A stretch of DNA of 64,000 bases from positions 37,837 through 101,836 of the forward strand of contig JAEURA010000254.1 of the NCBI GenBank assembly GCA_016789005.1, written 5' to 3'. Positions 45,284 through 53,216 of this stretch are shown here, piece by piece (the first letter of the stretch is position 1; each line of letters starts with the position of its first letter). Below the pieces are notes generated by a model that saw nothing but the letters and a program-made list of their open reading frames with translations, was not told the origin of the DNA and did no database searches. The translations under genes and the position numbers were made by a program. Source of the stretch: Anaerolineae bacterium (GTDB lineage: Bacteria; Chloroflexota; Anaerolineae; Aggregatilineales; Phototrophicaceae).

Positions 45284-45416
45284 CTTAGAGGGTCTGTGAC
45301 AATCGGCGCTGGCGAAGCGACCTTCTCTCGTGCGATGATGAAATGGTCTTGGCAGAGACTCGCCGCTGCGCTACAATGCCTATTGCTGTGCCACAAAATT
45401 ACGAGGTCGTAATCCT

Positions 45417-45746
45417 ATGGCAATTCAACAAGACACTGTGCGGGTCGTTCGATGGACGGGAGGGCAGCACCCTACCCTTTCGAACATCACCCGCCAGATG
45501 CAGCATGAAGGGCTTCGTCCTTATGCCTGGGACAACCGCCCGAATTACCGCTATGCCGTTCGCAGCCACGGTTTCTCCAAAATCATGTACGTCGTCGATG
45601 GGATGCTGGAAATCACCCTCCCCGACAGCAACCAAAGAGTCAAACTGCGCGCCGGAGACCGCATCGAAATCCCCGCCGGCATTCGTCACGGCGCGATCAT
45701 CGGCAGCAGCGGCGCGAAATGCGTCGAAGCCGCAGCGCAGCGCTAA
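45417..45746 (+). CDS. Cupin domain protein
   Basis: HSH and LRPGDRIDIPRG.RHG cupin motifs. Confidence 0.8.
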   Translation: MAIQQDTVRVVRWTGGQHPTLSNITRQMQHEGLRPYAWDNRPNYRYAVRSHGFSKIMYVVDGMLEITLPDSNQRVKLRAGDRIEIPAGIRHGAIIGSSGAKCVEAAAQR

Positions 45747-45860
45747 GCGCGGCATGGTGGTCCCTCTCTGCCGGTTCGCTGCCGGGTTTCGTCCGGCGGT
45801 GCACACATCCCCTCAGTTCTTCGCGCTCAAGCCCATCTTAGAACCGCGCATCCACTGAAG

Positions 45861-46649
45861 ATGGCGATCCGCCAGCGCATTGGTGCGCCGACCATCGTAC
45901 AGACGCAGTTCTGGTCCTTCTCCATCATCGGGATGGTACAGCACGTCGCCATCTGGTCGCATGCCGAGATCACAACGCTCCCCCGGCAGTCGGTCACGGC
46001 GCTGGTGGCGTGCAGCGCAGAGTCTCATCCCACTCAGGAAGTCAGAGTTTCGGTCTGGCGAGGTGTCCCTCTGAGCACGCTTCTCTCTTCAGTGCAGATC
46101 GCCCCGGCGGCACATTTCGCCCGCCTGCACTGTGCCGACGGTTTCACGAGCCTCCTTCCGCGCGAGATGCTTGATCGGGCTGTGCTGGCGCTCGAACCGA
46201 TTGACGTGCCTCCTTCCCCGGATGATGGATGTCCCGCGCGCCTTGTGGTTCCGGGGTGCTGTGGCTACAAGCAGGCAAAATGGCTCGAACGGATCGAGAT
46301 GATCGCTGCGCCAGTCGGTGGCATGTGGGAAGAACGTGGGGCGTCACTCGACGGGCGGCTTCAGGCGACAAGCTCTTTTCGTTCTGCGCCGGAGGGGGAC
46401 CGTCTGCGTTTGAGTGGAACGGCGTTCGCCCTGGGCGGATTCAGCGAGATTCAGATGAGTATCGGTGACGGCGGATGGATGCCGCTTAGCATCGCCCCAG
46501 TGCTGACGGACGATGGCGGCGTGTCGGCGGTAGACTGGAATGTCGTCTGGACGCCGCCCCACACAGGGAACCATACCGTTCGCCTGCGTCTCTGTCCGGC
46601 GCAGGGTGGCGCACCTCGTTCGATAGTCAGGAACGTTACCGTCCCATGA
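45861..46649 (+). CDS. Sulfite oxidase-family molybdopterin-binding oxidoreductase, divergent
   Basis: W.F.I.G, ACS (Mo-ligand Cys position), WRGVPL..LL, ADG, PARLVVPG..GYKQAKWLERIE, C-terminal dimerisation-like domain. Confidence 0.75.
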   Translation: MAIRQRIGAPTIVQTQFWSFSIIGMVQHVAIWSHAEITTLPRQSVTALVACSAESHPTQEVRVSVWRGVPLSTLLSSVQIAPAAHFARLHCADGFTSLLPREMLDRAVLALEPIDVPPSPDDGCPARLVVPGCCGYKQAKWLERIEMIAAPVGGMWEERGASLDGRLQATSSFRSAPEGDRLRLSGTAFALGGFSEIQMSIGDGGWMPLSIAPVLTDDGGVSAVDWNVVWTPPHTGNHTVRLRLCPAQGGAPRSIVRNVTVP

Positions 46650-47527
46650 CCCTCTCGCGTCGCGACTTTCTAAGGATTTTCGGCGGCTCTGCGGCAGCTG
46701 CCGTCGGTGGATTCGCCCTGGCATTTTCGCCGACGGGTCCGACGGCAAGCGATGCAGACCTGAAGAGCTTTCAGGCGCGCGCGCTGCACACCGCCCCGGT
46801 TCGAGAAATGCCTTCCCCTGAGTCACCGGTCGTAAAGTACCTGTGGGAAGACGAGATCTTCGACGTTCAGGCGGCAGTCGGGCGGTGGATGCAGTCGTCC
46901 GAAGGATTCATTGCCGCGCATGATGCTCAACCGATGCTGGTGACTGCGTTGCTGGAGATGCACGATACTCCCCACTGGGCGGCGGTGGTCGGTGCAGCAG
47001 CGGCAGTGCGCGCCTGGGCGTGCGACTCTGCGCCACTCATCGAAAAGATCGGTCATGGCGGCGTGATGCGAGTCCTCGACCGCCTCGCACCGAGGGCGGC
47101 GTGCGATGCCTGGGTCGCCATCGCCGACGAACACGACAGAGTGATTGGTTGGTCGCGGAATACGCTGTGGTCCGCGATTGGCTGGCGCACGACTGCCGAC
47201 GCGGATCTGATCGTCGATGCTGCTCTGCGCCGCGCCGAATTGTGGGAAGCCGGAGCTGCACGCCTGTGCGCCGACGTGGCGCTGGGACGAGCGCTGGTTC
47301 CCGGCGAATATCCGGTCACGCTGTACCAGCCAGGGACAACCATTGAGGCAGCCGGACACACCCGACTCGGAGTCCCCTATGTTCAGCGCGCAGGTAATGA
47401 ACTGAGCCTCGGCGGCGTCTATTGGCATAATCAATTCGGCGCTGCACTGGACGGGCTGGATATTCAACTTCCTGTACAGATCGCGCGGGCGTGGTTCGGA
47501 CGCCTTCGTCGCGTCATCGTTCGTTAA
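46646..47527 (+). CDS. Tat-exported protein with SH3-like repeats and degenerate YkuD (L,D-transpeptidase) domain
   Basis: SRRDFL Tat motif; GVPY...GGVYWHNQFGAALDGLDIQL lacks the HG..SHGC catalytic residues. Confidence 0.65.
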   Translation: MTLSRRDFLRIFGGSAAAAVGGFALAFSPTGPTASDADLKSFQARALHTAPVREMPSPESPVVKYLWEDEIFDVQAAVGRWMQSSEGFIAAHDAQPMLVTALLEMHDTPHWAAVVGAAAAVRAWACDSAPLIEKIGHGGVMRVLDRLAPRAACDAWVAIADEHDRVIGWSRNTLWSAIGWRTTADADLIVDAALRRAELWEAGAARLCADVALGRALVPGEYPVTLYQPGTTIEAAGHTRLGVPYVQRAGNELSLGGVYWHNQFGAALDGLDIQLPVQIARAWFGRLRRVIVR

Positions 47528-47582
47528 TCAATTGCCGCTACACTCGATATACGATCAGGCGTAGCAAGAGCAGCAGGTCATT

Positions 47583-49196
47583 ATGGAAGTCACATTAGCA
47601 CTGGCATTCATCGCGGGTCTGGCGTCGTTCCTGTCGCCCTGCGTACTCCCTCTCGTCCCGGCATATATCGGCTACATGGGTGGTCGGGTAGCGTACACCG
47701 TCGCGGCTCAGACCACGTCTGGCGGAACAGCCGTGCTGAAACCTTCGCTTGGCGCACGTTTCAGCACGCTCCTGCACAGCCTCGCTTTCGTCGCCGGTTT
47801 TTCGCTGGTGTTCGTCAGCATCGGGCTGCTCAGCACTGCCTTCGTATCGGTCATCGGCAGGCAGAACGTCAGCGCCGTCACCGGCATCATCAGCCGTGCC
47901 GGTGGGGTGCTGATCATCTTCTTCGGGCTGCACTTCATGGGCGTCATTAATCGCCTGTTCACGGTAATTCTAAAACGCCCGAAATCGCTGAATACTCCCA
48001 TCATCGGTATCGCGATCATTGCCGTGCTCAGCTTTCTGACCCTCTGGATCTTCGAAGACTGGCTGCCAGCACTGCCCGTCGCGGCGCTGTTGACGGTGTG
48101 GCTGGTGCTCTCCGGCGCATTCACTGAGCCTGGGACGTTTTGGACCGCCGCCATTGGGAAGGTTCAGGCTTGGCTGTATACCGACACGCGCCGGCAGATG
48201 GTGGCGCAGGGTCAGCAAAGCTACCTGAGTTCGTTGGTGATGGGTGTCGTCTTCTCCGCCGGGTGGACGCCCTGCATCGGACCGATCTACGGGACTATTC
48301 TGACGATGGCTGCCGCCGGCGGCGATGTGGGTCAGGCTGGCAGTCAGCTCGCCGCTTACTCGCTCGGTCTCGGCATCCCCTTCATACTCGCGGCGCTCAT
48401 GCTTGACAGCGCCCAGGGCATACTGCGCCGATTGCAGCGCTATCTGCACGCCATTGAGCTGGCGGCAGGCACTTTCCTGGTTGTGATCGGCATCCTGGTG
48501 GCAAGCGGGCAGCTGCAATCGCTGAGTCAGAATTTCGCCAATCAGTTCGCCGATTTCTCCTATCGTCTGGAGGAGTGCGCAGTTGATCTCTACGAAGGAC
48601 GCTTGAACTTCGGGGGGTTCGTGAGCTGCGCAAGCGCCGCGCAAGCGGCTGAAACCGATCCGGTTGACGGTACCAGCAGCGACACCGCCGCGCCGCTGGA
48701 AGTCGTCAGTATCACCGACCTGGCGGGCAGTATCCCATCTGCCGATCCCTCAGCGGCGCTTCCGCAGCAAACTGGCACCGCCATCGGCAGTCTTGCGCCG
48801 CTGTTCAGCGCTCTCGACGATTCAGGACAGCCCTTTACCTTGGAAGATGTGCGCGGTCAGACGGTGCTCCTCAACTTCTGGGCGACCTGGTGCGGACCCT
48901 GCCGCATCGAAATGCCGGAGCTGCAACGGACCTACGAGATGTATTCGGAACGCCAGGTGCTCGTGGTCGGGGTCAACAATCGCGAGACGCTTGAAGACGT
49001 CGCTGGTTTCCGGCTGGAACGAAGCCTGACCTTCCCGCTGCTGATGGACGAGGCAGGCAGCATTCAGGATGCCTACGGCATTCAGGCGTATCCGAGTACA
49101 TTTGTGATCGACCGCACGGGCGTCATTCGGGGAATCCATTATGGTCCGCTGACCAGAGGGCAGATTCAGGCGCTCCTTGACGAAGCGCTCTCGTAA
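47583..49196 (+). CDS. CcdA (DsbD TM domain)-thioredoxin fusion, DipZ-like
   Basis: SPCVLPLVP and WTPCIGP cysteines; C-terminal NFWATWCGPCRIEMP. Confidence 0.88.
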   Translation: MEVTLALAFIAGLASFLSPCVLPLVPAYIGYMGGRVAYTVAAQTTSGGTAVLKPSLGARFSTLLHSLAFVAGFSLVFVSIGLLSTAFVSVIGRQNVSAVTGIISRAGGVLIIFFGLHFMGVINRLFTVILKRPKSLNTPIIGIAIIAVLSFLTLWIFEDWLPALPVAALLTVWLVLSGAFTEPGTFWTAAIGKVQAWLYTDTRRQMVAQGQQSYLSSLVMGVVFSAGWTPCIGPIYGTILTMAAAGGDVGQAGSQLAAYSLGLGIPFILAALMLDSAQGILRRLQRYLHAIELAAGTFLVVIGILVASGQLQSLSQNFANQFADFSYRLEECAVDLYEGRLNFGGFVSCASAAQAAETDPVDGTSSDTAAPLEVVSITDLAGSIPSADPSAALPQQTGTAIGSLAPLFSALDDSGQPFTLEDVRGQTVLLNFWATWCGPCRIEMPELQRTYEMYSERQVLVVGVNNRETLEDVAGFRLERSLTFPLLMDEAGSIQDAYGIQAYPSTFVIDRTGVIRGIHYGPLTRGQIQALLDEALS

Positions 49197-49206
49197 CGAC
49201 ACGCCT

Positions 49207-49749
49207 ATGCGCAAGCCGCTGCTGCTGCTGGGATCCCTCGTAAGCTGGCTCATCGCGCTGCTGGTGATCGTCAGCTCAGGACTGCCAGAGCGGGCGTTTT
49301 ACACCGGAGTCTCTCGGAGCGGCGGTCTGCTCGTAGCGCCGGAAATCGGCTCCCTGGCTCCTCCTTTTCAGGCGGCGACGCTAGACGGCAGCATCGACTC
49401 GGCACGACTGCTGGGGCAACCCGTCCTGCTGAACTTCTGGGCGACCTGGTGCGCGCCGTGCGTCCTCGAAATGGTGGAGCTTCAGCGTATCCACGAGACC
49501 CACCCGTCCGTCGTCGTGGTCGGCGTCAACCTCGGAGAGTCCGCATCGGCGGTCAGCGCCTGGGCGAAGGCGCACCGCCTGACTTTCGACCTGGTGCTCG
49601 ATCCTGCCGGCAGCGTCGCCCGTCTTTACGCCCTGCGGGGTCAGCCGTCAACCTATGTGATCGCGCCTGATGGTACAATTCGACAGATATTCTTCGGCGC
49701 GGCGGATGCGGCGGCGTTCACAGGAGCGCTGCTTCCGCTGATCCGCTGA
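49207..49749 (+). CDS. TlpA/ResA-like membrane-anchored thioredoxin
   Basis: N-terminal TM helix, NFWATWCAPCVLEM, PSTYVI. Confidence 0.9.
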   Translation: MRKPLLLLGSLVSWLIALLVIVSSGLPERAFYTGVSRSGGLLVAPEIGSLAPPFQAATLDGSIDSARLLGQPVLLNFWATWCAPCVLEMVELQRIHETHPSVVVVGVNLGESASAVSAWAKAHRLTFDLVLDPAGSVARLYALRGQPSTYVIAPDGTIRQIFFGAADAAAFTGALLPLIR

Positions 49750-49798
49750 AGAGGCTGACGGACATGCCGGACGACGCGACAAAGGATACGCCGCTCGT

Positions 49799-50599
49799 AT
49801 GACGACGCCAACATCTGAACGCCGCAGCGCCGCGCTGCGCCTGAACCTCTGGCTGCTCTGGCTGTCGCGGCATTGGCTGCGCGTCGCCCTGATCGTCCTC
49901 GGCATCTACGCCGCCCTGCCCTGGGTTGCGCCGACTTTGATGCACTTCGGGCTGGCAGGTCCGGCGCGGGTGCTGTACTTCGTCTACGGTCCCTTCTGCC
50001 ATCAGTTTGCCTTCCGGTCCGTCTTCCTGTTTGGCGATCAAGCCGCCTATCCCCGTGAGATTGCCGGGACCGATCTGACGCCCTACGAGGTGTATGTCGC
50101 AGACTCGCCGGAGTTCGACGACGCGCTAAAGAACTGGATCGCGCGTCCGCAGAGCCGATACGACAGCATCGGGGCGTTCGATCCCAGGGAGTGGACGTTC
50201 GATCTTCAGTTTGCCTCCAAGGATTTCTTCGGCAGCCCGCAAATGGGTTACAAGACCACGCTCTGCCAGCGCGACCTGGCGCTGTACGCCGCGATGTTCG
50301 CCGGCGGGTTGATCTACAGCCGTCCGTTCATCCGGCGTCGCCTGCGTCCGATTCCTCTGCTGCTCTACATCTTCGCCGGCGGGCTGCCCATCGCCATCGA
50401 TGGCTTCAGTCAGCTCCTAGGCTATCCCCCGATTTCGCTGTGGGAACCGCGCGAGACTACACCGGCATTCCGCATCATCACCGGAGCAGTTTTCGGGTTG
50501 ATGACCGCCTGGCTGGCTTTCCCCTATCTGGAAGAGTCCTTCAGGGAGACGCGCCGGGAATTGGAGGCGAAACTGCGGCGGGCTGGCATCGACGTGTAG
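49799..50599 (+). CDS. DUF2085 family membrane protein
   Basis: FCHQ and LCQRD motifs, PIAIDGFSQL, RIITGA.FG. Confidence 0.8.
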   Translation: MTTPTSERRSAALRLNLWLLWLSRHWLRVALIVLGIYAALPWVAPTLMHFGLAGPARVLYFVYGPFCHQFAFRSVFLFGDQAAYPREIAGTDLTPYEVYVADSPEFDDALKNWIARPQSRYDSIGAFDPREWTFDLQFASKDFFGSPQMGYKTTLCQRDLALYAAMFAGGLIYSRPFIRRRLRPIPLLLYIFAGGLPIAIDGFSQLLGYPPISLWEPRETTPAFRIITGAVFGLMTAWLAFPYLEESFRETRRELEAKLRRAGIDV

Positions 50600-50613: not shown

Positions 50614-53106
50614 TCAACGCCATCCCCGCCAGGCGGTCGTCATCTGAGCGATTCGTGCAGCAGCGGCATCGCGCTGTGTCTCTACAATCCGCGACGCCGT
50701 CAGCAGCAGCACGCCGCCAGCCAGAGGGATCAGCCAGGGGTTGAGGCGCGCCGTCAGGAACAGAATACCGAAGAGCAGCACGATGGTGCCCGACAGGAAA
50801 GTGCGCCGGCGGTGGAAGATCGTCCCATGCAGCGCCAAACCAACCGCAGCCGCTCCGCCAGTGAGCCAGATCAACGCGCGGTCGGCAGATGGTGCGTCCG
50901 CCGGGGTCACAGCGGATTGAGCAGCGGTCACGTACGCCAGTAGCCCAATCGCCAGTGTCTCAAGTGAAGCCCTTCCCGCCTGATCGAAATGGGCGATCAG
51001 CAAGAGCGTCAGCGCAACCGGGATGTTTTGCAGCGCCACGCCATCCAGCTTCACCCCATAGAGCGTCAGCCACCAGGCACACCAGATGACGACAACTGCG
51101 CCCAACCGCCAGAGCGGTTCGCGGAGGAAAACGATCAGGACCAGACTCGCCAGAAAAAGTACTTTGGCGATCTGATTCACATAGGCAAATCCACCGCTGG
51201 GACCGAAGAGGTGCACAGCTGCGACAGCGATCAGCGTCCCAGCGATGACAACGGGCCGGGGTGACCCTTTCTGCTGACGCGCCAGCGCCAGGGCGACGAT
51301 ACCGATGGAGAGCAGTCCGAGCAGTGTGGCGGGCGGCAGGCTGAGCAGTCGGCTAGCTTGCAGCACCACAAACGCGGTCTGCATCAGAGCGACCGGCAGC
51401 CAGTAGCCGCGTCCGGTGCGGAAAAGCTGTTCGGCGCTGATCCCCAGCCCGAATATGGCGGCGATCACCGCTTCGCTCGGCGCGAAGAATACTTGCAGCA
51501 GCCCAATCCCCCAGAGTAACCAGCCCGCCGAGTGTACCGTCCACCCGGCGACATCCGGGATGCGATCCAGCAACCACCCTACCATGAACCAGGCGCTCGA
51601 GATCAGGACAAGACCCAGCCCCTGACGCTGGGCGGGCAGTCCCAGCGCGCCGAGGATGATCTGAAACCAGATGGCGGCGAGCCACGCCCCAAGGAGCAGG
51701 AAGGCGCTGCGAATCACGCGGTGCGCATAAGGTCGCCGTGCCGGCGGCGCAATCCAGGCGGCGAAGCCGTCCCAGAGCGGATGTTTCCCAAGCAGGACGA
51801 GCGCCGCGCTGATCAGGCTTGCCAGCACGGCGATCCCTAGATGGAGCGGCATCGTCCGCTCATCGGCGAGCGCCAGCCCGGCACCGATCAGCGCGTATCC
51901 CACGACGAAAAACGGAGCGCGCACCCCCGTGCGGAGTCGCGTCATAGCGTGACCGATGACCAGCAGCAAGACGCCGACCGCCTGCCAGACAAGACCAAGT
52001 ATCGGCAGAGATGTGAAAATGAGGTTACTGCTAATCAGCCCCATGCTCAGCGGGAATGGTGCGACGTAGAGCGCCAGGTGGGCGAAGATCGGCAGACGAT
52101 AGACGATGCCCTGCGCCAGCCACAGCGCCGTCAGCGCCAGCAGTGTCAGCGTCAGGGCGGCGTGATCCATCGTCGCCAGATTGGCAGCGGTGGCGAGCAG
52201 GCTGACGATGCTCAGACCGACGGAAACATCGGCTGTCGTCCAGCGAAACATTGCCCCCAGCATGCCCTGGACTTTTTTGCCCTTCCCTCCGCCGGAGCGG
52301 GTTACCTGACCTATCAGCACCGCCAGCGCCGCCGGCAGGATGATCCAAAGGGCAAACGTTTCTGGGCTGCCGACCCAGGTGCGGTGCGCAAATGTCCACA
52401 CACCGGCGAAGCCCCAGGCGGAGAGATGCGCCAGTACTCTCAAGCGGGTCACAACCCCCAGAATAGCGATCAGCGCTGATGCGGCAAGCCAGGTCAGGAT
52501 CGCCGCCGCCGGGAAATCCGTCGCCAGAAGCAGCATTTGTGCCGAAACCGCCATCAGAAGCAGAAAAGCGCCTGTACGATAGACCCGACGCCAGAATGGC
52601 GTGGCATGGGGAAACAGCAGCCACACGGCAGCGGCGCATGGGATGCCAAGCGCCGTCAGGTAAGGCTGTGCCAGCGCCGGAAATGTGCTGATGGCGGCGG
52701 CAGCGAAGTTCAACTGAAGGAGCAGGATCATCGGCGCGATCAGGAGATTTCGCGTGCGCCCTCCAACGATTGTCACCGCTACAGCAGCGATCAGCGAGGC
52801 GAACAACCAGAAGGCGTTCGACCAGCCGTCAGAAAGCGCCGAGCGGAGGTCGAGAAGCTGAACCAGCGCCACGCCCACCAGCCAGGCGGCAGCCGTCGAA
52901 AGCGCGCCGGTCACCAGGGGCGCATTGCCTGCCCGGCGCGAAAGCACGCTTAACCCCAACAGCGTCGCGGGCATACTGATGGCGGCGGTGACGCGAACCA
53001 GAAAGGAATCCGTCTGCAGATCCTTCCCCAGAAACAGCAGAGAGATCACCAGCAGGGCGCTGCCGGCGTAGGTCGTCAGCGCCAGAGTCCACCGTGAGCG
53101 TTCCAT
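50614..53106 (-). CDS. Large polytopic membrane protein (about 830 aa), SCO7613 C-terminal-like
   Basis: Almost continuously hydrophobic; C-terminus WLIPLAGGVLLL...E.QR...W; GGAGG RBS before ATG 53106. Confidence 0.7.
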   Translation of the reverse strand: MERSRWTLALTTYAGSALLVISLLFLGKDLQTDSFLVRVTAAISMPATLLGLSVLSRRAGNAPLVTGALSTAAAWLVGVALVQLLDLRSALSDGWSNAFWLFASLIAAVAVTIVGGRTRNLLIAPMILLLQLNFAAAAISTFPALAQPYLTALGIPCAAAVWLLFPHATPFWRRVYRTGAFLLLMAVSAQMLLLATDFPAAAILTWLAASALIAILGVVTRLRVLAHLSAWGFAGVWTFAHRTWVGSPETFALWIILPAALAVLIGQVTRSGGGKGKKVQGMLGAMFRWTTADVSVGLSIVSLLATAANLATMDHAALTLTLLALTALWLAQGIVYRLPIFAHLALYVAPFPLSMGLISSNLIFTSLPILGLVWQAVGVLLLVIGHAMTRLRTGVRAPFFVVGYALIGAGLALADERTMPLHLGIAVLASLISAALVLLGKHPLWDGFAAWIAPPARRPYAHRVIRSAFLLLGAWLAAIWFQIILGALGLPAQRQGLGLVLISSAWFMVGWLLDRIPDVAGWTVHSAGWLLWGIGLLQVFFAPSEAVIAAIFGLGISAEQLFRTGRGYWLPVALMQTAFVVLQASRLLSLPPATLLGLLSIGIVALALARQQKGSPRPVVIAGTLIAVAAVHLFGPSGGFAYVNQIAKVLFLASLVLIVFLREPLWRLGAVVVIWCAWWLTLYGVKLDGVALQNIPVALTLLLIAHFDQAGRASLETLAIGLLAYVTAAQSAVTPADAPSADRALIWLTGGAAAVGLALHGTIFHRRRTFLSGTIVLLFGILFLTARLNPWLIPLAGGVLLLTASRIVETQRDAAAARIAQMTTAWRGWR

Positions 53107-53216
53107 GAAAGCGCCTCCTATACGCGCATCCTCTGCCTTCAGCATAGAAGGAACGCCGGACGGATGGAGTAGGCGCTGCGTACGTCGCCTCCATGACAAA
53201 TGTCCAGAGGTGAGAC

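Follow-up and report, generated by a model that had tools for sequence, protein, structure and literature searches.

We analysed a 64,000-nucleotide stretch of contig JAEURA010000254.1 (the window) from an uncultured filamentous Anaerolineae metagenome-assembled genome related to Ca. Flexifilum, and within it a run of five genes at 45861-50599. These encode a leaderless molybdenum protein of the sulfite-oxidase (SUOX) fold, hereafter the Mo protein; a protein with a twin-arginine translocation (Tat) signal; a fusion of CcdA to a thioredoxin (CcdA-Trx); a TlpA/ResA-like thioredoxin; and a DUF2085 membrane protein. Sequence profiles and a structural model identify the Tat protein as an L,D-transpeptidase (Ldt) that has lost its catalytic residues, which we call the pseudo-Ldt. 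The genes fall into three layers that differ in distribution: a thiol relay present throughout the class, a slot before ccdA that holds a pseudo-Ldt in one order, and a Mo protein, present in part of that order, whose relatives carry decayed export signals. We tentatively favour, at somewhat less than even confidence, a reading of the locus as a three-layer composite in which the Mo protein would be exported together with the pseudo-Ldt.

A preliminary description had proposed the locus as a candidate extracytoplasmic redox/repair operon, in which an MsrP-type enzyme may be exported by hitch-hiking on its Tat partner and fed by CcdA/Trx rather than MsrQ. That interpretation survives in part: the conserved gene order, the apparent coupling of the first two genes and the decayed signals speak for it, whereas the MsrP type, the supply from CcdA and the single dedicated repair operon are not supported, the last giving way to three layers with different distributions.

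A family of pseudo-L,D-transpeptidases

The lead to the identity of the Tat protein was a weak N-terminal match to a 367-residue protein in another family (genome G006), which combines a Tat signal and an SH3 domain with a genuine YkuD domain and whose gene stands directly before ccdA. A profile-profile comparison (hhalign) of the Tat protein family with active Anaerolineae Tat-exported Ldts gave a probability of 99.7% and an E-value of 5.6e-27 over 275 columns. An AlphaFold2 model built from an alignment of 85 sequences had a pLDDT (predicted local distance difference test) of 91 and a pTM (predicted template-modelling score) of 0.88, and its top Foldseek matches were LdtMt1, LdtMt2 and Ldtfm (probability 1.00), with a TM-score of 0.69 on the Ldtfm catalytic domain. 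Both comparisons place the protein in the YkuD fold. At the catalytic site, the sequence in active Anaerolineae Ldts of this kind is HGTYWHNDFGxPxSHGC(V/I)N, where the window protein reads GGVYWHNQFGAALDGLDIQ; the catalytic His is replaced by Gly and the nucleophilic Cys by Asp, and the H...SHGC signature is thus absent. The profile match, the modelled structure, the loss of catalytic residues and membership of a single clade together identify the Tat protein as a pseudo-Ldt in which a Tat signal and SH3-like domains accompany a YkuD fold.

A word-based search with the single protein retrieved only 4 relatives, and the size of the family comes from a profile search of 1.84 billion representatives, which returned 359 relatives (representative clusters), 127 of them below 1e-30. 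Among the 150 matches listed, most were about 290 amino acids long and nearly all carried SRRxFL. None of the 85 aligned members has Cys at the nucleophile column, which instead holds A, T, S, D, G or Q; the catalytic His is retained in 14 of 85, and the YWHN and GHGG motifs are invariant. No Pfam model covers the family, and the only Pfam or NCBIfam match of the window protein is a weak one to TAT_signal. The family forms one clade with support of 100/100. A tree of pseudo- and active Ldts did not resolve the ancestral active Ldt, so gene position alone suggests descent from a ccdA-linked enzyme. At L044:8989-9087 the pseudo-Ldt frame ends after 32 codons while the tblastn match runs on, indicating a frameshift or an assembly error. 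These results define a large, unrecognised family of Tat-exported pseudo-Ldts, which in a single Chloroflexota order is tied to ccdA.

Three layers of unequal distribution

CcdA-Trx, TlpA and DUF2085 form a class-wide Anaerolineae core that also occurs without any Mo gene. Of 201 Anaerolineae genomes sampled, 186 encode a DUF2085 protein, and in 15 of 16 loci its gene adjoins one for CcdA, for a TlpA-like protein or for both. One genome of the same family as the window (G502) has the order CCA-cupin-CcdA-Trx-TlpA-DUF2085 and no gene for a Mo protein or a pseudo-Ldt. An active Tat-Ldt is encoded upstream of ccdA in 4 of the 16 Anaerolineae loci sampled.

The second layer is confined to the order, where 47 of 151 genomes, from five families, encode a pseudo-Ldt and two families have none; these counts use a profile threshold of 1e-40 within the order, as class-wide E-values do not separate pseudo- from active Ldts. 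Among 30 fetched loci the pseudo-Ldt is followed by ccdA in 25, with 2 loci ending before that point and 3 showing no ccdA. The third layer covers part of these loci: of the 30, 8 have a Mo gene immediately before the pseudo-Ldt and a further 6 have one no more than 1.5 kb upstream (14/30). The two genes adjoin directly in all seven loci retrieved from the same family and in part of f140, another family. Conservation of the operon, which the preliminary description had proposed as a check, was borne out: the Mo-Tat-CcdA order is retained in 7 of 7 same-family loci at 25-35% identity. Across the relatives' loci compared, gene order is kept far beyond chance.

Other families show different neighbours. 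In f139 the Mo gene is absent and multihaem cytochromes and thioredoxin lipoproteins lie upstream instead; at L082, L085 and L089 one or two thioredoxin lipoproteins, along with multihaem c-type cytochromes, are encoded before the pseudo-Ldt and ccdA. In f138, a two-domain rhodanese (CRIGERS) and a SufE-like protein, neither with a signal peptide, are encoded directly upstream of the Mo gene in L102-L107, with a MobB or CMD-family gene downstream. Two further f138 loci (L079:2437-3030 and L073:2400-3035, both minus strand) have a thioredoxin-like lipoprotein gene directly upstream of the pseudo-Ldt, with an in-frame TGA at the first Cys of WCxxC. The contexts are FQARW-U-STC and W-U-SAC, and the f139 homologues read WCGPC or WCQPC, suggesting that the f138 lipoprotein is probably a selenocysteine thioredoxin.

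A leaderless Mo protein outside the MsrP type

The Mo protein matches the molybdenum-cofactor (Moco) domain over profile positions 6-169 of 169 and keeps the Mo-ligand Cys51, and C51, R127 and W141 are invariant in close orthologues. Pfam did not detect the Mo-co dimerisation domain PF03404 in the window protein; the region aligns to orthologues that carry it (24.8 bits against a cut-off of 22.7 in L044; E-value 8e-10 in the paralogue at L041). The architecture would accordingly match that of SorA, SoxC and sulfite oxidase, with a trimmed Ig-like dimerisation domain after the Moco domain, and not that of MsrP, the type first assigned to it: the MsrP model NF003767 scores 24.4 bits against a cut-off of 207 and covers residues 120-159 only. 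The best NCBIfam match, SoxC, is also far too low (57 bits against 420), as are SorA (34.5 against 600) and SorT (22.5 against 570). The loop after the ligand Cys reads CSAESHP, lacks the sulfite-binding Arg (CAGNRR or CSGNGR) and is highly variable among relatives. An extra Cys in PGCCGYK, highlighted in the preliminary description, proved not to be conserved, with relatives reading PGCYGY and PARSGY. The protein is neither a canonical MsrP nor a canonical sulfite dehydrogenase. MoeA and TatC are present in the genome.

SUOX proteins with Ser in place of the ligand Cys occur at L048:8087-8998, L087, L105:190-1170 and L107:207-1181 (the last two on the minus strand), with the motifs IASMGNPVGG and LVSALNPPGG; they may be either Ser-ligated or non-catalytic SUOX-fold proteins. 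An apparent loss of the ligand Cys in L086 was probably a misalignment, with an NCSS motif 5-6 residues away, and was left uncounted.

As first described, the Mo protein has no signal peptide, and an earlier start is also excluded, with an in-frame TAA at 45744 and no ATG, GTG or TTG between it and 45861. Ten Mo relatives retain an S/T-RR-x-F-L motif, which was found in three families at 25-30% overall identity. In 9 of the 10, the best 12-residue hydropathy after the RR is at most 0.93, compared with a median of 1.59 in 76 pseudo-Ldts and 1.2-1.8 in exported paralogues. The RR motif is thus kept without its hydrophobic core, and autonomous Tat targeting has been lost from this clade. Other exported SUOX paralogues have Tat signals or N-terminal membrane anchors, and some appear to be tethered by such an anchor or by a possible lipobox (read by eye from the sequences). 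On a Mo tree the window protein falls outside a well-supported clade of short cytoplasmic forms and among exported two-domain and membrane-anchored paralogues; leaderless forms require 2-3 changes. A leaderless 214-residue SUOX-fold protein with CVTKWS (G000:C337:17245-17685; L099:1426-2070, minus strand) belongs to this short-form clade, which is widespread in the class. At L046:7413-8138 (minus strand), a gene for a CRP/FNR-like regulator, identified by eye, lies divergently and immediately upstream of a leaderless Mo gene.

The 4-bp overlap between the Mo stop and the pseudo-Ldt start (ATGA), already noted in the window, recurs in 8 of 15 loci, and in none of the 15 are the two genes more than 20 bp apart, pointing to their translational coupling. 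Their identities to relatives run in parallel (82/81, 49/53 and ~30/30%). Relative to the nearest relative, both genes have nonsynonymous rates (dN) of 0.10-0.11, three to four times the 0.03 of CcdA-Trx and DUF2085, and TlpA is the only neighbour of comparable rate (dN 0.074; ratio of nonsynonymous to synonymous rates, dN/dS, 0.29). The Mo protein is thus fast-evolving, and both of its termini are trimmed. With dN/dS values of 0.23 (Mo protein) and 0.24 (pseudo-Ldt), both are under purifying selection.

A class-wide thiol relay

CcdA-Trx scores 31.6 bits with DsbD_TM (cut-off 27.1) and matches AhpC-TSA at 1.3e-29. Reading its translation by eye with the positive-inside rule suggests two repeats of three hydrophobic helices with an extra pair inserted between them, eight in all; because of this insertion, the DsbD_TM model matches the second half alone. 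The transport Cys residues lie in SPC and TPC motifs, one per half, and the fused thioredoxin would face outwards. Both thioredoxins of the locus have the thioredoxin fold, WCxxC and a membrane anchor or fusion, and fall below the cut-offs of named equivalogs (ResA, DsbE and TlpA): the thioredoxin of CcdA-Trx matches the ResA subfamily at 6.4e-33, and the TlpA/ResA-like protein matches ResA, StoA and DsbE, all below cut-off, so that neither is placed in a named subfamily. A TlpA-like gene is retained after ccdA in relatives. In a genome of the same genus (G031, L009:353-1498), CcdA is a 381-residue protein without the fused thioredoxin and is followed by a separate TlpA.

Two conserved Cys motifs had been noted in DUF2085, and both, C67-H68-Q and C156-x-R158-D159 (CHQ and LCxRD), are invariant in 16 orthologues. 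A glutaredoxin (Grx)-like domain is fused to DUF2085 in G006 and in 26% of a 941-member cluster; the G006 locus (L064:5664-8605) encodes an active Tat-Ldt, then CcdA, then a Grx-like (CHLC)-DUF2085 fusion. Our literature search found no described function for DUF2085. Its constant partnership with CcdA and TlpA, and its occasional Grx-like fusion, provide a lead to that function.

CcdA-Trx is the sole DsbD_TM match in the genome, in which no ResB was found; a complete cytochrome c maturation (Ccm) cluster (CcmE, F, H, G and C), including its own CcmG, is on another contig. With a single CcdA-type gene and Ccm elsewhere, CcdA would have to be a general hub that also serves the Ccm cytochrome c system. 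Supply of the Mo protein by CcdA-Trx, as originally suggested, is not supported, given the same evidence and the class-wide occurrence of the relay in loci that have no Mo gene. Adjacency to CcdA is thus not the same as electron supply: the relay is a housekeeping hub.

A model for the composite locus and its alternatives

In the model that we favour, CcdA-Trx, TlpA and DUF2085 would be the cell's only CcdA-type route by which cytoplasmic reducing equivalents reach outward-facing thioredoxins, a housekeeping relay probably also serving Ccm and other thiol clients. In other Anaerolineae, the slot before ccdA holds a Tat-exported, Cys-dependent Ldt, a natural client of such a relay; in this order it is occupied by dead Ldts of single origin, in which Tat signal, SH3-like domains and YkuD fold survive but the nucleophile does not, and which most likely bind peptidoglycan rather than cross-linking it. 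In part of the order, this genome included, a Mo protein has lost the hydrophobic core of its Tat signal, or its whole leader, and become coupled to the pseudo-Ldt. After Moco insertion in the cytoplasm, the Mo protein would bind the folded pseudo-Ldt and both would cross on the pseudo-Ldt's Tat signal, with the SH3/YkuD module tethering the Mo protein to the wall. Co-export fits the overlap of the two genes, the similar rates at which they evolve, the RR motif that Mo relatives keep and the position of the Mo protein among exported paralogues. The gene identities, the three-layer distribution, the lost catalytic residues and the decayed signals are seen in the sequences themselves; a complex of the two proteins, their joint export and docking at the wall, and any catalytic role that the Mo protein may have are inferred. 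The decayed Tat signals agree with the hitch-hiking originally proposed, and such a passage is plausible, if slightly doubtful.

Several observations weigh against this model. A search for a fused Mo-pseudo-Ldt protein found none, a negative that counts for little. In f138 the Mo gene, though within 1.5 kb of the pseudo-Ldt, is split from it by a thioredoxin gene together with MobB or CMD. At half or more of the loci the pseudo-Ldt has no Mo gene at all, so that conveying the Mo protein would not be its main role. The ligand Cys has changed to Ser in two separate lineages with frames intact; together with the variable active-site loop, this suggests that what is conserved may be something other than catalysis. 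The Mo tree has a poorly resolved backbone. Two further points are shared with the principal alternative, an unlikely but substantial contender, named in the preliminary description as a case that would refute its model, in which the Mo protein stays in the cytoplasm, acting for example on sulfite or on a protein persulfide made by rhodanese and SufE, and only the pseudo-Ldt is exported, with adjacency and gene overlap reflecting co-regulation within a compact operon instead of a complex. The f138 order rhodanese - SufE-like - Mo - MobB, with neighbours that lack signal peptides, suggests such a cytoplasmic role, and the same genome encodes a leaderless cytoplasmic SUOX-fold protein of a kind common in the class. 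Lack of a signal peptide or alternative start in the Mo protein, the coreless RR motifs of its relatives and the SoxC match, though far below its cut-off, lean the same way; SoxC acts on protein-bound persulfide. Yet the Mo protein lies outside the short-form clade, among two-domain forms that are otherwise exported or membrane-anchored, and the S/T-RR-x-F-L motif kept in three families is hard to explain without Tat involvement. The 4-bp overlap and the matched fast rates argue for partnership with the pseudo-Ldt, the genome's own SufE-like gene is on another contig, and the sulfite-binding Arg is absent.

We consider it improbable that the Mo protein is an MsrP-like reductase of methionine sulfoxide, or of another substrate, exported on its Tat partner and receiving CcdA electrons via the fused thioredoxin and TlpA in place of MsrQ. 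Such a scheme would account for the recurrence of the Mo gene beside thioredoxin-fold or CcdA genes in three families and in varied arrangements, one of them with the probable selenocysteine thioredoxin. It would also suit the lack of any haem or cytochrome subunit encoded beside the Mo gene and the position of the genome's only Ferric_reduct match (the MsrQ domain family) on contig C54, beside no SUOX gene. It conflicts with the MsrP score and with two apparent domains where MsrP has one, and the relay is class-wide and independent of the Mo gene, its sole CcdA serving Ccm. The constant neighbour of ccdA is, moreover, the pseudo-Ldt and not the Mo protein, and to our knowledge no SUOX-fold enzyme takes electrons from a thiol relay. 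Electron supply to the Mo protein from CcdA is thus unsupported, and we give little credence to an extension of our model in which a Mo enzyme exported on, and docked at the wall by, a dead Ldt exchanges electrons with CcdA-TlpA, in some relatives via the selenocysteine thioredoxin. Least probable of all, and in our view very improbable, is a reading of the Mo and pseudo-Ldt genes as decaying remnants that no longer have a function. Every neighbour except TlpA evolves more slowly than they do, the Mo termini are trimmed, and the catalytic residues of the pseudo-Ldt and, in two lineages, the ligand Cys of the Mo protein have been lost; but dN/dS is well below 1 for both, reading frames are intact across families, and the pseudo-Ldt family is large, with its two motifs invariant.

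What is new, on this analysis, is the replacement of an Ldt by a Cys-less family and the recurrent pairing of that family with a SUOX protein of decayed signal. A literature search covering DUF2085, YkuD with CcdA or MsrP, and hitch-hiking sulfite oxidases found no description of such a system. If the Mo protein does ride on the pseudo-enzyme, this would be a new route by which cells possibly devoid of an outer membrane export and anchor a cofactor enzyme, and a dead enzyme would have been reused as a carrier. Were the improbable thiol-exchanging, Ldt-carried Mo enzyme to be real, it would be the first thiol-driven SUOX-type enzyme, with the first pseudo-transpeptidase serving as export carrier and wall anchor.

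Layout and limits of the gene run

All five open reading frames (ORFs) were confirmed on the plus strand, co-oriented and tightly spaced, as the preliminary description had them. A cupin gene upstream of the Mo gene is the sixth gene of the run; it is upstream in most same-family loci, with identities of 98%, 91% and 64-66% in relatives, has a dN/dS of 0.05, and also precedes ccdA in G502. A 171-residue ORF at 45343-45858 was judged spurious, since it matches no known family and runs across the cupin gene in a different frame. No terminator-like sites were found on the plus strand within the gene run. Translation of the TlpA/ResA-like gene may begin at an alternative ATG at 49207. Converging on the operon from the minus strand (50614-53199) is a gene for an 861-residue polytopic membrane protein with no family match, which has 84% and 58% identity to its homologues in the two nearest relatives.

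Table 1 Features of the gene run in the window
Feature	Coordinates	Strand	Evidence or remark
Promoter-like site, TTGGCA-17-TACAAT	45349..45377	+	10/12 matches; weak, a consensus match alone; possible operon start before the cupin gene
Cupin, 109 aa, no signal peptide, conserved first gene of the run	45417..45746	+	Cupin_2 E 3.6e-6, 27.0 bits, just below the Pfam cut-off of 27.2
Mo protein, 262 aa, leaderless, SUOX fold	45861..46649	+	PF00174 E 1.2e-25
Pseudo-L,D-transpeptidase with Tat signal, 293 aa, N-terminal SRRDFL	46646..47527	+	Pfam/NCBIfam: weak TAT_signal match only
CcdA-Trx fusion, 537 aa, WCGPC	47583..49196	+	DsbD_TM and AhpC-TSA/Redoxin
TlpA/ResA-like thioredoxin, 190 aa, membrane-anchored, WCAPC	49177..49749	+	AhpC-TSA E 3.1e-23
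DUF2085 polytopic membrane protein, 266 aa	49799..50599	+	PF09858 E 6.9e-11

Comparison with known systems

The closest parallel to a relay core with a YkuD protein is the DsbD-DsbG/DsbC system of E. coli, which, in work by Depuydt and colleagues from 2009, reportedly protects the single-Cys Ldts YbiS, ErfK and YnhG. Both combine YkuD envelope proteins with outward-facing thioredoxin-fold proteins and a transporter that carries reducing equivalents across the membrane, and other Anaerolineae have an active Tat-Ldt before ccdA. YbiS relies on a single Cys (PMC9144841), whereas the YkuD protein here has no Cys to protect. The relay also differs, comprising CcdA, a TlpA/ResA-type protein and DUF2085 instead of DsbD and DsbG, and its genes are clustered, which they are not in E. 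coli. CcdA-ResA/CcmG systems and the Streptococcus pneumoniae CcdA-Etrx-MsrAB2 system share with this locus a CcdA with two transport Cys residues and membrane-tethered TlpA/ResA-like CxxC thioredoxins. Here, in contrast, a thioredoxin is fused to a CcdA with two extra helices, no ResBC, Ccm or MsrA/B adjoins, and DUF2085 is a constant additional partner.

The Mo protein resembles SorAB, SoxCD and the sulfite oxidases of plants and animals in its Cys-ligated Moco domain, probably with an Ig-like dimerisation domain after it, and in having a partner encoded by the next gene. It differs in that this partner has no haem, the Mo protein has no signal peptide and scores far below the cut-offs of these families, no Arg follows the ligand Cys as it does in these enzymes, and the dimerisation domain would be a trimmed one. 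With MsrPQ (YedYZ) it shares a SUOX-fold Moco protein that probably functions in the envelope, but MsrP is a single-domain protein with its own Tat signal and a haem-b partner, MsrQ, and none of these three features applies here. The arrangement also resembles Tat hitch-hiker complexes such as the HybO-HybC hydrogenase and DmsAB (Rodrigue and colleagues 1999, a reference of PMC6085387). As in those complexes, a leaderless cofactor subunit is encoded beside a partner with a Tat signal. The signal-bearing partners known so far are redox subunits, whereas at this locus the partner would be a dead cell-wall enzyme.

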